Below are positions 9,314 to 45,782 of a DNA stretch of 48,813 nucleotides, one piece after another; positions within the stretch are counted from its first letter, which is position 1, and every line of letters starts with the position of its first letter. The notes below the pieces were generated by a model. The model worked only from the letters and a program-made list of their open reading frames with translations. It searched no databases and was not told where the DNA came from. Where the stretch lies: the NCBI GenBank assembly GCA_001785615.1, contig MFUG01000005.1:1-48813 (forward strand), in the 5' to 3' direction. The translations under genes and the position numbers were made by a program. Source of the stretch: Candidatus Nomurabacteria bacterium RIFCSPHIGHO2_02_FULL_42_19. Its GTDB lineage: Bacteria; Patescibacteriota; Minisyncoccia; Phycocordibacterales; UBA9973.

Positions 9314-9340
9314 GTGCCGGAGAGTTCAACTCTCCGGCAC
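9314..9340. terminator. 11-bp GC-rich stem-loop between convergent island A ORF and purA
   Basis: GTGCCGGAGAG-TTCAA-CTCTCCGGCAC forms a perfect stem, 18 nt after the island A stop and 8 nt before the purA stop. Confidence 0.6.
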
Positions 9341-30060: not shown

Positions 30061-30193
30061 AATTATCTTTTAATTTTAAGCTTATTCTGGTATAATCACA
30101 AGACAACAAAGTGTTTTGTTGCATGTTCTTTTTAGTAAAGAAATGTGTTAGTTTATATTTCACGTTTCTGTGCTCCGCCGTAAGGCGGAGTAT

Positions 30194-36566: not shown

Positions 36567-37343
36567 TTATAGCACAGGAATAATTAGAGCGACTGACTCC
36601 ATTAAATTTTTTACGGATGAGCCCGGCTGACGGAGAAATTCTCGGACCTTGAAAATCTGATGCAGACAAATTTGTAAAGAATTTTGAACGGGGAAGGTTC
36701 CATCCGAAGGATGGAGTAATCCGGAAAAATTATTTACAAATTTCTTGTGAAGCACGCTCTCTACTGCATTCAAAAATCTAAGCGCTTTGGACCGTGCAGA
36801 GTCCAGTGTGACATCTTTCCCGACCCCTGTCGGGATCCCGACTTCGGTCGGAACCTCCGCTTCAGTTACTAACTCTTTTATAAAATTAATTCTACTTTGG
36901 AGCGGCGTCTTAATAAATTCTTCCGCTTCTTTCAACTCAATCCCCTCTTTTGGTTTAATTACATAAAATCTAGAGGCGAAGGTTTTAAGGAGCGCATTGA
37001 CGTCCGGTACAACTAGAAAAAAATGAGTATTCTCTATCGGCTCTTCAAACATTTTAAGCAGAGTATTCTGCGCCTCTAGTAAAAAATTATTAGCCGAAAT
37101 TACAAAAATTTTTCTACCCGCAGAATTTGCTTTTTCTCGGCTGAAGGACTTTAGATTACGCGCATCTTCCACCTTAAAAGAGTCCGCTTTTAGGTGAACA
37201 AAGTCCGAATTGCCAACTGTCTTTATTCCTAAATCCTCTACCGCTTCCAGAATTTCAGGTAAAATTTCCTCCCCAATTCCTTCTATCAAATACGCATGAT
37301 GCAGATTATTCTTGTTTATATGTTTTGAAATTTTGGAGCTCAT
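36567..37343 (-). CDS. holB: DNA polymerase III delta-prime-like clamp-loader subunit
   Basis: 258 aa with HHAYLIEG and a degenerate AAA+ fold. It is weakly conserved and contains the GC hairpin element at 36816-36854. Confidence 0.6.
   Translation of the reverse strand: MSSKISKHINKNNLHHAYLIEGIGEEILPEILEAVEDLGIKTVGNSDFVHLKADSFKVEDARNLKSFSREKANSAGRKIFVISANNFLLEAQNTLLKMFEEPIENTHFFLVVPDVNALLKTFASRFYVIKPKEGIELKEAEEFIKTPLQSRINFIKELVTEAEVPTEVGIPTGVGKDVTLDSARSKALRFLNAVESVLHKKFVNNFSGLLHPSDGTFPVQNSLQICLHQIFKVREFLRQPGSSVKNLMESVALIIPVL
36816..36854. repeat. double-hairpin CCCGAC/GTCGGG element, copy 1 (inside holB, in-frame)
   Basis: TTTCCCGACCCCTGTCGGGATCCCGACTTCGGTCGGAAC matches 36 of 39 nt to 44238-44276. 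It encodes VPTEVGIPTGVG in holB. Confidence 0.8.
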
Positions 37344-43326: not shown

Positions 43327-44229
43327 TCAGCTGACTGAAGCCATCCCTGCGCTGATCTCCGATATTTCTCTAGTAATATTCGACTGTCTTGCCTTGTTAA
43401 ATACCAGTGTTAAGTCATCAATCATTTCCCCCGAGGCCTCACTCGCATTCTTCATCGCTACCATCCTGCTCGACTGCTCGGAAGCATTGGACTCTAGGAG
43501 CATCTGGTATATCTGCATGCGGGTTAACTTTTCCGCCAAGGAAGTTATAAGCTCTTCCCGGTTTCCTTCAAATAAATAATTTACTCTTTTCATTTCCTTC
43601 GCTCCTTTTTTAGGGGCTAGATTTTCTATCAATTCCTTGAGCTCCGTCTTTGAAATCGGAAGGATCTGTTTTATATTCGGCCGCTGGGTCAGAGCTGAAA
43701 TAAAATCCGTGTAAGCTACTAAAACTTTATCATAATGTTCCAGGGTATATTCATCCATTATCATTTTGGATATCGGTAAAACATCCGAGAGAGAGATATT
43801 GTCTGGGAGTTCAGTGAAGCTGGCAATGATGTTTCGGCCCAAGCGACGCATCGAGGTATCGCCCTTTTTACCGATTGAAAGTATATCAATCTTAGTGTTT
43901 TTATTTTCTTCTTGATTTTTTAATATGGAAATCGCTTTTTTCGTTACTTGCGCGTTGTAGGCGCCACAGAGTCCGCGGTTGGAAGTAATGAGCACCAACA
44001 AAATATTTCTCGCTTCTCTTTCAATAAAAAGTGGATGGGTGGAGTCCTCTAAATTCCGAGCGATTGAGGTCAAGATTTCCCAAGAATATTCCGCATATAG
44101 TCGTGAGGCAAGTGTGGAAGAAACCGCGCGCTTCATTTTACTGGCTGCCACCAGCTCCATCGCCTTGGTGATTTTCTTGGTGCTTTTGACCGATTTTATT
44201 CTATTTTTAATTGCTTTACTGTTTGACAT
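43327..44229 (-). CDS. atpG: F1 ATP synthase subunit gamma
   Basis: 300 aa with IKNRIKSVKSTKKITKAMELVAASKMKRA at the N-terminus and ITREISEI at the C-terminus. Confidence 0.93.
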   Translation of the reverse strand: MSNSKAIKNRIKSVKSTKKITKAMELVAASKMKRAVSSTLASRLYAEYSWEILTSIARNLEDSTHPLFIEREARNILLVLITSNRGLCGAYNAQVTKKAISILKNQEENKNTKIDILSIGKKGDTSMRRLGRNIIASFTELPDNISLSDVLPISKMIMDEYTLEHYDKVLVAYTDFISALTQRPNIKQILPISKTELKELIENLAPKKGAKEMKRVNYLFEGNREELITSLAEKLTRMQIYQMLLESNASEQSSRMVAMKNASEASGEMIDDLTLVFNKARQSNITREISEISAGMASVS

Positions 44230-44237
44230 AATTTAAT

Positions 44238-44276
44238 TTTCCCGACCTCTGTCGGGATCCCGACTTTGGTCGGGAC
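44238..44276. repeat. double-hairpin CCCGAC/GTCGGG element, copy 2 (atpA-atpG intercistronic)
   Basis: TTTCCCGACCTCTGTCGGGATCCCGACTTTGGTCGGGAC. The hairpins are 44241-44256 and 44258-44275. Confidence 0.8.
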
Positions 44277-44285
44277 TTTTGTTCC

Positions 44286-45782
44286 CTAACTAAAACTATT
44301 CTTATAATCTTCTATCACTTTTTCTAATTCTTTCTCCCCTTTATTCGTCCACATTTTTGTATCTTTTATTTCTTTATAAAAGGTCTTGGCATTGCGCTCG
44401 CTGTAATCCGTGAGTCCTTGTTCAAATGCTTTTATTTTCTCCACTGGCACATCGTCCATGAAGCCCTTGGTTAGAGCGTATAGGGTAACCACTTGATGCT
44501 CGGTCTTTACTGGAGAATATTGGAGTTGTTTCAACACTTCCACCGCTCTTTTGCCGCGTTCAAGCTGACGCTTGGTGCTCTCATCCAAATCAGAACCGAA
44601 TTGGGAAAATGCTTCCAGCTCGCGGAACTGCGCTAAGTCCAGCTTGAGCGTTCCTGCCACTTTTTTCATTGCCTTAATCTGTGCATTTCCTCCCACGCGA
44701 GACACTGATGAGCCCACGTTTACCGCCGGGCGAATACCTTTATAAAAAAGATCGGTCTCAAGGAAAATCTGCCCGTCCGTAATAGAAATCACATTCGTTG
44801 GAATATACGCCGAAATGTCGCCAGCTTGGGTTTCAATAATAGGTAGCGCGGTGATAGACCCTCCGCCATACTTAGCATTTCTTCGGCAAGCTCTTTCAAG
44901 CAAACGAGAATGTAAATAAAAAACGTCACCCGGATATGCTTCACGGCCAGGTGGACGACGTAGTAAAAGAGAAATTTCGCGATAAGCCACAGCATGCTTG
45001 GACAAGTCATCGTAAATAATTAACACGTCCTTACCCTTATCCATAAAGTATTCTGCAACGGCAACTCCGGCATATGGCGCAATGTACGAGAGTGGTGCTG
45101 GTTCCGATGCGCCCGCAGAAACTATGACAGTGTAAGCCATAGCGCCACCTTCTTCCAGGCGCGCCTCGATCTTACGAAGTTTGGAATCCTTTTGCCCGAT
45201 GGAAACATAAACACAAATCATGTTCTGGCCTTTTTGATTTAGAATACTATCTATGCAGAGAGCGGTCTTGCCTGTTTGTCTGTCACCAATAATAAGTTCA
45301 CGCTGACCGCGACCGACGGGAATGATAGCATCAATTACTTTTATACCAGTAGCCACCGGCTCGGAAACACTCTGCCTGGTTACTACCCCTGTCGCAACTT
45401 TTTCAATCGGATAGGTCTTGTCCGCTTTGATAGCGCCTTTGCCATCAATGGCTTGCCCTAAAGGACTTACAACGCGGCCAAGTAACGAGTCCCCGACCGG
45501 AATTTCCAAGATTTTGCCTGTCGCTTTTACTTCATTGCCTTCTTTTATTTTTGAAAAGTCACCCAGAATAACGACCCCGACTGTGTCCTCTTCCAGGTTG
45601 AGCGCCACACCGGTCTCGCCATTTTGAAAAGTAACCATTTCGGAGGATTTGATGTCAGAGAGTCCAGAGATCTTGGCAATACCGTCGAAAACTTCAATAA
45701 CATGACCGACTTTCTCTGTCTTCGTATCTGCCTTGAAGGCCTCTATTTCTTTTCTTAAATTTTCTATGATATGGTTTGACAT
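44286..45782 (-). CDS. atpA: F1 ATP synthase subunit alpha
   Basis: 498 aa with GDRQTGKTA Walker A. Confidence 0.96.

Follow-up and report, generated by a model that had tools for sequence, protein, structure and literature searches.

The contig MFUG01000005.1 of Candidatus Nomurabacteria bacterium RIFCSPHIGHO2_02_FULL_42_19, analysed here as one stretch of 48,813 nucleotides (nt) that we refer to as the window, contains two copies of a short, GC-rich double hairpin, one of them inside a holB-like gene and the other in the spacer between atpA and atpG. The features concerned are the following:

36567..37343, minus strand: holB-like gene, DNA polymerase III delta'-like clamp-loader subunit of 258 amino acids (aa), with a match to DNA_pol3_delta2 (PF13177, 1.3e-17) and a PDB profile match to the gamma/tau/delta' AAA+ domain
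36816..36854, minus strand: copy 1 of the repeat, core 36818-36853, hairpins 36818-36835 and 36836-36853, corresponding to residues 163-175 of the holB-like protein
43327..44229, minus strand: atpG (ATP synthase gamma), downstream neighbour of copy 2
44230..44285, minus strand: atpA-atpG intercistronic spacer, 56 nt
44238..44276, minus strand: copy 2 of the repeat, core 44240-44275, hairpins 44240-44257 and 44258-44275, non-coding
44286..45782, minus strand: atpA (ATP synthase alpha), upstream neighbour of copy 2, stop codon 44286-44288

A first-pass annotation of this DNA had stated that the two segments share 36 of 39 nt, and both sequences are exactly as quoted there, with three differences between them (92% identity). 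Each core consists of two abutting 18-nt units, TCCCGAC-N4-GTCGGGA, with 7-bp palindromic stems and 4-nt loops. The two adjacent CCCGAC/GTCGGG hairpins described for each copy are therefore real, with a single mismatch in the final stem of copy 1 (GTCGGAA) and perfect pairing in all remaining stems. On the sense (minus) strand, copy 1 reads G-TTCCGACC-GAA-GTCGGGA-TCCCGAC-AGG-GGTCGGGA-AA and is translated as VPTEVGIPTGVGK within the open reading frame (ORF) 36567-37343(-), whose frame is unbroken, as had been claimed; the orientation of copy 2 relative to transcription is the same. The UUCG loop attributed to one hairpin does exist as TTCG, but on the plus strand, antisense to holB, and the loops of the mRNA are CGAA and AGGG. 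With a G+C content of about 42%, the window is also not strongly AT-rich, contrary to the label that its lineage had been given.

Within the window, the pattern CCCGAC-N3-6-GTCGG occurs seven times versus 0.01 expected from shuffled sequences, and a search with up to three mismatches yielded a sole extra match, at chance level; the count of the element in the window stands at two copies. In independent metagenome assemblies of the same species, copy 1 was found in 10 contigs and copy 2 in 5, which is every contig covering the respective site, and an assembly artefact can thus be dismissed. We further observed a window-wide surplus of other perfect, GC-rich hairpins (stem of at least 6 bp, loop of 3-6 nt), with about 28 distinct ones against about 9 in shuffled sequences, examples being 519-543, 9314-9340 and 30173-30190, the last just upstream of a tRNA.

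A dispersed family of double hairpins

The two repeats belong to a dispersed family. A scan of metagenome contigs with the 18-nt-spaced pattern, in which any 4 nt were allowed at the junction (GTCGG-GATC-CCGAC in the window type) and intact CCGAC and GTCGG cores were demanded, matched at least 119 stretches, and the further dimers for which the first-pass annotation had proposed a search are thus numerous in related genomes; viral contigs contained no copy matching this pattern. From the matches listed, 94 distinct copies on contigs of at most 50% G+C form the family set to which the counts below refer, with column statistics on 91. The family resides in Patescibacteria of the Paceibacteria/Nomurabacteria type. 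Its consensus is (G)TCCCGACC-NNN-GTCGGGA/TCCCGAC-NNN-GGTCGGGA(A), the slash separating the abutting hairpins. Even loop bases outside the search pattern are fixed, the first of hairpin 1 being a C in 90 of 91 copies and the last of hairpin 2 a G in 84 of 91. Stem pairs 6 and 7 are of Watson-Crick type in 86-90 of the 91 copies, and the stems occur in the compensatory versions TCCCGAC/GTCGGGA, CCCCGAC/GTCGGGG, CTCCGAC/GTCGGAG and TTCCGAC/GTCGGAA.

In a shuffling analysis, the partners of pairs 6 and 7 were found to covary inside each small hairpin, with the observed value reached in 0 of 2000 shuffles, but not between the outer arms, so that the two-hairpin structure, or a pair of dyad sites, is the conserved entity. 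An alternative long single hairpin, in which the outer arms pair around an inner GTCGG/CCGAC stem with a GATC loop, is about equally stable and was favoured by ViennaRNA for three of the four strands folded; in view of the covariation within the small hairpins and the anti-complementary loops, it was rejected as the conserved structure. In coding copies, pair 6 links two silent codon positions, GTC..GGG versus GTT..GGA (41 CG, 6 TA, 3 other), and selection or correction must therefore act on the nucleic acid and not on the protein. Mismatches on the sense strand comprise five G.U and five C.A, which gives no sign of RNA rather than DNA as the relevant molecule.

A relative of the element came from a scan of a genome collection, for which a 17-nt-spaced pattern, CCGAC-N4-GTCGG-NNN-CCGAC..., was used in place of the 18-nt spacing of the window type. 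This double hairpin (L011-L051) reads GTCCGACC-NNN-GTCGGAC/TCCGAC-NNNN-GGTCGGAG and is concentrated in metagenome-assembled genomes (MAGs) of Nomurabacteria, Paceibacterota, Saccharibacteria and Doudnabacteria, with chance matches in genomes of high G+C content. About half of its copies have GTAG after them; most are non-coding, in tRNA clusters, with a few located in long ORFs (L026, L039, L044, L047). The same scan retrieved an unrelated high-GC REP-like family from MAGs of Anaerolineales/Anaerolineae (L012, L021, L029, L031, L049, L050), (CTGTAGCG)CCGACTNNAGTCGGCNGCCGACTGAAGTCGG(CGCTACAG), with GTAG/CTAC in its outer arms, for the sole reason that it fits the 17-nt-spaced pattern.

Nested or merged elements were observed at L066 (~1680-1750), L107 (~1100-1150) and L179 (1400-1450), where a further CCCGAC...GTCGGG hairpin holds a double hairpin in its loop or additional arms abut the dimer. 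In the 16S rRNA gene of L115 (2845-2862 and 2946-2963), the tips of V1 (helix 6) and V2 are both CTCCGACCTCGGTCGGAG, a monomer of the same hairpin type. As both helices have normal length in the Rfam alignment, these tips are replacements or products of convergence, not insertions.

Copies in coding and non-coding DNA

Coding copies remain in frame, as a check proposed in the first-pass annotation confirmed. Since the unit measures 18 nt and the dimer 36 nt, or 12 codons, the reading frame is preserved by an insertion in any phase. The three possible frames are nevertheless used very unequally, a skew expected from purifying selection on the peptide. The frame PTxVG-[I/T/V]-PTxVG accounts for 55 of the 94 listed copies, in ORFs of at least 120 aa and in 50 cases at least 20 codons from either end. 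Twelve copies use the frame SRPxSGSRxxSG, for the most part within N-terminal tails rich in Lys and Arg, for example in ribosomal protein L23 or a sigma-factor-like protein, and nine use the frame PDxxRDPDxxRD. Seven of these nine sit 2-7 codons past an upstream stop, and most of them have a Met start within about 10 codons downstream, so that they lie in short spacers like copy 2. Another 18 copies are non-coding. Under a simple gene model 77 of the 94 fall inside a predicted ORF, with at least 50 deep in long ORFs. The peptide logo of the sense strand is (E/K)-V-P-T-(K/E)-V-G-(I/T/V)-P-T-(E/G/K)-V-G-(K), an example of an element-bearing peptide being ...AEVPTEVGIPTGVGK. As a side observation, two or more segments of a very Lys/Arg-rich ORF at L095 (41-652), PRPLSGSRLRSG ... 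SRPLAGSRPKAG, derive from elements read in the SRPxSGSR frame; this ORF may encode a basic protein built partly from elements, or may be no real gene.

Among the matches listed, the housekeeping hosts include L7/L12 (4), GatB (3), holB (3), a VirD4/TrwB-like ATPase (5) and ATP synthase gamma (2), as well as LepA, NusA, GreA, DnaG, RpoA, SecA, UvrD and a DnaQ-like exonuclease. In hosts with known domain limits, the element is found between domains, as in the L7/L12 hinge and the linker between the N-terminal and C-terminal domains of RpoA; further examples are the stretch separating the exonuclease from its C-terminal domain, the one between domains III and EFG_C of LepA, and the Cys-cluster loop of GatB.

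The dominance of the PTxVG frame among coding copies, flanked by V and K, might suggest that PTxVG-x-PTxVG is a selected protein linker module that arose by convergence or exon-like shuffling, with the palindrome merely incidental. This explanation is hardly tenable, as at least 17 copies besides copy 2 lie in non-coding DNA and the same 36-mers are used in two other frames, by which a module at the protein level is effectively refuted. The 94 copies represent 69 sequence types, few of which recur exactly. Among the matches listed, TCCCGACCGAAGTCGGGATCCCGACAGGGGTCGGGA (CGAA/AGGG type), from which copy 1 of the window differs by one base, occurs seven times on different contigs, in a DnaQ-like exonuclease, RpoA, SecA and others. 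Likewise, TCCCGACCGCAGTCGGGATCCCGACAGAGGTCGGGA (CGCA/AGAG type) occurs seven times, in GatB, NusA, L7/L12, the N-terminal tail of L23 in another frame, and non-coding DNA. Identical 36-mers across unrelated genes, frames and non-coding DNA form a pattern that a protein-level explanation cannot yield. Moreover, genomes of 32-49% G+C use the same fixed codons (CCG, ACC, GTC, GGG), with covariation at silent positions that keeps the base pairs.

Beyond its core the element is asymmetric, with purine-rich loops, a preceding G and a following A on one strand. The purine-rich loops are on the sense strand in 50 versus 4 of the PTxVG-frame copies and in 11 of the 11 intergenic copies with determinable orientation, including copy 2. 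For PTxVG copies, this polarity could be due to amino-acid selection for K, E or G; possible readings of the bias are a strand-specific insertion, coupled to replication or transcription, a selection of loops at the RNA level, or local strand composition.

At the site of copy 1, the presence of the element is polymorphic. The holB-like protein has 1267 homologs, and those with names originate from Candidatus Paceibacterota and Nomurabacteria. The closest one, P0002 (250 aa, 88% identical), is without the element, its EIEESEEEMVS taking the place of the EAEVPTEVGIPTGVGKDVT of the window protein. In their DNA, the two genes have flanks of about 95% identity and the element segment is replaced, with raised divergence over about 15 nt on the left and about 45 nt on the right. 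The expectation that holB orthologs would reveal an insertion of 12-13 codons thus held in so far as the closest ortholog does not have the segment, but the site is a replaced linker with diverged flanks and not a clean insertion; judging from the alignment, the difference would seem to resemble an imported or co-converted tract. The first-pass annotation had also considered that there might be only two copies in all, and that orthologs without the repeat might show the same peptide, and neither is the case. In a phylogeny of 120 holB homologs, obtained by neighbour-joining only, intact or decayed PTxVG segments appear in at least 12 scattered places. Two near-identical sister pairs differ in the presence of the element (P0001/P0002 and P0005/P0023), and a small clade (P0070, P0074 and P0108) retains it with expanded loops. 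Scattered presence together with an element-keeping clade indicates turnover plus some vertical inheritance.

An AlphaFold2 model based on an alignment of 40 sequences has a mean predicted local distance difference test (pLDDT) score of 79.7, with values below 50 only at residues 162-180. This is the element peptide, located between helices 148-159 and 180-206. The mapping onto a clamp-loader structure that had been suggested earlier therefore finds the peptide in a disordered inter-domain linker. The gamma/tau/delta' AAA+ match stops near residue 128, and by the offset from it the insert would lie where the lid (domain II) meets the C-terminal collar (domain III).

Two side observations concern the same gene. 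A second perfect hairpin, TCCATCC-GAA-GGATGGA, is found at 36699-36715 (residues ~205-217); the low-confidence segment around it, NFSGLLHPSDGTFPVQNS, is the second such segment of the protein, varies between homologs and is missing in some. An ORF of L060 that is probably a divergent holB has a similar peptide and DNA sequence, and the hairpin may be another in-frame module. In addition, the linker that accommodates copy 1 carries further recurrent short inserts in other homologs (LPAQAG, LSAQAGG and EALPSQGESK; P0029, P0075, P0082, P0089, P0012, P0094, P0110), which could be encoded by other small palindromes.

Copy 2 is intercistronic in the atp operon, as had been stated, between the atpA stop and the atpG start at 44229, beginning 10 nt past the stop codon and ending 10 nt short of the ATG. 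In the syntenic relative L174, with the same atpA C-terminus and atpG start, the spacer is 16 nt long and without the element, and there is no CCGAC hairpin in the 20.7 kb of this locus. Compared with the 56 nt in the window, copy 2 thus represents an insertion of about 40 nt relative to L174. Read on past the TAG stop of atpA, copy 2 stays in the PTxVG frame (44238-44288, *GTKVPTKVGIPTEVGKIKL...), which may be due to chance (1 in 3). An intrinsic terminator was rejected for this copy, as the sense strand continues with AAAAUUAAAUU-AUG and contains no U-tract; the sole terminator-like call at copy 2, with its U-tract, is on the antisense strand, and copy 1 is intragenic.

These contexts also bear on the possibility that the hairpins are functional RNA or DNA structures under selection in each host gene, acting in operon spacers as mRNA stabilisers, processing sites or translation modulators, like the intercistronic REPs of E. 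coli, or causing ribosome pausing at intragenic domain boundaries in aid of co-translational folding, with mobility only as their origin. The stems are kept by compensatory changes at orthologous positions in proteins that are 42-80% identical, but the element is absent from the same sites in close relatives and its distribution on the holB tree is patchy. ViennaRNA predicts stable folds (-23 to -25 kcal/mol, z-scores -2.9 to -5.2), yet G.U pairs show no surplus over C.A. Intergenic copies are situated no more than about 20 nt from the stop or start of co-directional genes and in a single orientation, but the sense strand is devoid of a U-tract and a scan of the window against Rfam returned three tRNAs only, with no family at the elements. 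Coding copies do occur at domain boundaries, a location that tolerance alone predicts equally well. On balance, we regard a gene-by-gene function as unlikely.

Considerably less probable still is a cellular DNA recognition site, be it an uptake signal for the competence machinery on which these bacteria rely or a site related to binding, methylation or restriction, in spite of the perfect dyad of two palindromes, the fixed 8-nt outer half-site GGTCGGGA and the GATC contained in the centre GGGATCCC. Uptake sequences of Neisseria and Haemophilus are likewise embedded in tolerated gene frames. However, DNA uptake sequences or uptake signal sequences (DUS/USS) would require about one copy per kb of a fixed 9-12-nt motif and were discounted on these grounds, the density here being far too low with two dimers in 48.8 kb, none in L174 and, among the matches listed, one or two per several hundred kb. 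The compensation at pairs 6 and 7 also means that a structure is kept rather than a fixed recognition sequence.

GIY-YIG cassettes at tRNA genes

In the low-GC loci selected by their hairpins, all seven ORFs with a GIY-YIG motif start 18-65 nt from a double hairpin, of the 17-nt family in L024, L030, L034, L035 and L042 and of the window type in L059 and L127. The ORFs encode proteins of about 90 residues (~80-100 aa) that match PF01541 with 7e-15 to 8e-16. In a reverse test, five GIY-YIG homologs were picked by protein similarity alone (L178-L182; 55-66% identical for four of them, 49% for P0178), and CCGA(C)-type GC-rich hairpins were present just upstream of the ATG in all five, and hence at 12 of 12 loci overall. 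Named homologs belong to Taga-, Roizman- and Levybacteria. The cassettes are:

L059, 4870-5240, minus strand: GIY-YIG cassette
L127, 3060-3470: GIY-YIG cassette
L178-L182, ~1380-1870: GIY-YIG cassettes
L024, L030, L034, L035, L042: GIY-YIG cassettes

The order within a cassette is a tRNA 5' fragment whose D-arm contains or adjoins a CCGAC-type double hairpin, the GIY-YIG ORF and an intact tRNA, and the tRNAs concerned are those for Ile, Gly, Thr, His, Ala, Phe and Glu. In L178-L181 the hairpins are in or beside the 5' fragment of a tRNA, and the same tRNA follows intact right after the ORF, whose stop overlaps its 5' end; in L182 the hairpin array is repeated after tRNA-Glu, and no tRNA fragment was identified there. 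The five loci selected by protein similarity contain two canonical 17-nt double hairpins, one nested form, one single TCCCGA...TCGGGA hairpin and one complex array with GGGATCCCGA. In L059, a GIY-YIG cassette and three solo elements are found within 10.6 kb. Intact tRNA genes with an element in the D-loop were considered and rejected, since ARAGORN and Rfam call none and the sequences are truncated 5' fragments beside GIY-YIG ORFs.

The arrangement looks like a family of free-standing, tRNA-gene-homing endonucleases of Patescibacteria. SegB of phage T4 is a free-standing GIY-YIG homing endonuclease in a tRNA gene cluster (PMC2330249). The cassettes resemble it in being a small GIY-YIG gene among tRNA genes, and the duplicated tRNA 5' fragment next to the intact tRNA suggests homing into tRNA genes. 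They differ in that their proteins, of ~80-100 aa, are essentially the catalytic domain, and in that they are chromosomal, patescibacterial and furnished with a double hairpin at the junction. By analogy, the small GIY-YIG nuclease is a speculative candidate for a mobilising partner of the hairpins. As this link is seen only at other loci, the window copies are solo elements.

Possible mobility and comparison with known repeats

Taken together, we favour the view that the window repeats belong, as solo copies, to a dispersed family of elements of about 36 nt that is probably non-autonomous mobile, or selfish, DNA of the kind represented by repetitive extragenic palindromic (REP) sequences, Rickettsia palindromic elements (RPEs) and mitochondrial GC clusters; mobility as the cause of the pattern is what we infer. 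New sites would be populated by pasted-in copies, and recombination at conserved flanks would pass copies from one related genome to another. Owing to the length of 12 codons, the reading frame would never be shifted by an insertion, and selection would then purge copies wherever the peptide is harmful. Survivors would be intergenic copies, often in very short intercistronic spacers as between atpA and atpG, copies read in the neutral PTxVG-x-PTxVG frame within flexible linkers that separate domains, the case of holB, and a small number in the SRPxSGSRxxSG frame in Lys/Arg-rich tails. The stems would be maintained at the nucleic-acid level, either as a recognition structure for a mobilising enzyme or by correction within the palindrome. 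More speculatively, the mobilising enzymes may be the GIY-YIG nucleases of about 90 aa.

A number of observations weigh against this interpretation. There is no consistent target-site duplication (TSD), with AAG on both sides in 14 copies versus 7 expected and no excess of 4-mers. Neither a transposition event nor a clean empty site was seen, the difference in holB being a segment replacement. The copy number per genome is apparently low, with two copies in 48.8 kb of the window and one or two on several contigs of 150-585 kb among the matches listed. A phmmer search with E. coli RayT against 2675 ORFs of the low-GC loci among L001-L175 for a REP-associated tyrosine transposase (RAYT) of the HUH type gave one spurious match (E=0.013), although the method is insensitive and covered about 5 kb per element. 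The conservation of the core is partly by construction, because retrieval required it to be intact, and the host taxonomy of the metagenome contigs was deduced indirectly. The element also persists at orthologous positions in proteins of 42-80% identity, which could equally mean a long-term selected function. As for the nuclease, the window has no ORF with a GIY-YIG motif, and the cassettes are all at tRNA genes and never at coding-gene copies, so that hairpin and nuclease might adjoin for another reason, with the hairpin serving as a homing site, terminator or insulator of the cassette.

REP units are 20-40 bp long, tagged by GTAG or CGTC, predominantly extragenic and associated with RAYTs of the IS200/IS605-type HUH class (PMC3733652). 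The element fits the size in that its 18-nt unit is slightly below this range and the 36-nt dimer, always abutting, is within it. It further resembles REPs, bacterial interspersed mosaic elements (BIMEs) and REP doublets forming hairpins (REPINs) in its GC-rich stem-loop units that usually form dimers, its conserved stems and variable loops, and its location between co-directional genes near stops. However, GTAG/CTAC was located close to an end of 6 of the 91 copies and CGTC/GACG close to an end of 7, which places the element outside both the GTAG and the CGTC REP superfamilies. Moreover, its perfect 7-bp palindromes abut directly, whereas REP units are inverted with a spacer, and it is predominantly intragenic, with a GIY-YIG protein instead of an HUH tyrosine transposase as the candidate partner. 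In replication and repair genes, intragenic REP dimers are reported to specify 20-30 aa, probably in linkers (Di Nocera et al. 2013, PMC3733652), and as such intragenic REPs are known outside Rickettsia, the kind of element is not new. The suggestion in the first-pass annotation that it had not been described for a lineage of this type holds to the extent that our search of the literature on the Candidate Phyla Radiation (CPR), Patescibacteria and Parcubacteria found no relevant account of REP or palindromic elements or of MITEs (miniature transposable elements with inverted repeats), and the family appears undescribed.

RPEs (Ogata et al., as far as they are summarised in PMC3733652) are palindromic repeats found both between genes and in frame within them, RPE-1 having about 100-150 bp. 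The likeness to RPEs proposed earlier, of a GC-rich palindromic repeat tolerating in-frame insertion, is supported by the family census, the retention of frame, the holB ortholog and the linker mapping. As far as this summary goes, the parallels are the occurrence in frame in housekeeping genes and between genes, a host with a reduced genome, the preference for tolerated regions and a patchy presence among relatives. The differences on the same basis are the length of 36 nt compared with RPE-1, the host phylum, and the fact that most sampled copies are intragenic with one frame dominant; a sequence relationship is assumed not to exist, the two being set apart by size and host.

Organellar repeats provide another parallel, among them the double-hairpin elements of Allomyces mitochondria, which we take to be those of Paquin et al. 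2000. Like mitochondrial GC clusters, the element is a short, GC-rich (double) hairpin in an AT-richer, compact genome, with conserved stems, variable loops, merging and nesting, apparent exchange via flank recombination with co-conversion, and in-gene copies, which are occasional in mitochondria, in rRNA as well as protein genes (for example a 48-nt cluster in var1/rps3). The clusters are, however, organellar and mostly intergenic, in contrast to a mostly intragenic, frame-neutral 18-nt unit in free-standing bacteria. Descriptions of such repeats include the yeast mitochondrial GC42 clusters (PMC4478555) and the RHE hairpin elements of sponges (PMC2800124). MITEs were ruled out by a size of 36 nt as opposed to 50-500 bp and by the inconsistent TSDs. 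The distinguishing traits of the family are its minimal, frame-neutral double hairpin, the predominantly intragenic location in essential genes of Patescibacteria and the possible GIY-YIG partner.

A wider and decidedly more tentative proposal is that the 18-nt and 17-nt variants belong to an undescribed superfamily whose autonomous form is the cassette of about 90 aa homing into tRNA genes, with solo hairpins that have colonised operon spacers, tRNA-like loci and the linkers in dozens of essential genes, and that are still being exchanged among them. It is possible that such a system is REPtron-like, with a structure-specific GIY-YIG nuclease in place of the HUH transposase. The association of cassette and hairpin is in any case a testable candidate for the mobilisation of hairpin repeats, and the same question arises for CGTC REPs, RPEs and mitochondrial GC clusters.

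In-gene palindromic repeats have so far been mainly a Rickettsia curiosity, accompanied by scattered intragenic REPs, and are here found in the CPR, the most genome-reduced free-standing bacteria, where most sampled copies are in essential information-processing genes. The alignment, annotation and modelling of CPR proteins would be affected, as 12-residue PTxVG inserts would have to be read as DNA parasites and not as lineage-specific functional motifs. Because the sites are polymorphic between close relatives, they may serve as strain-level markers. If the repeats are indeed mobile, even strongly streamlined genomes still bear selfish DNA when it is frame-neutral.

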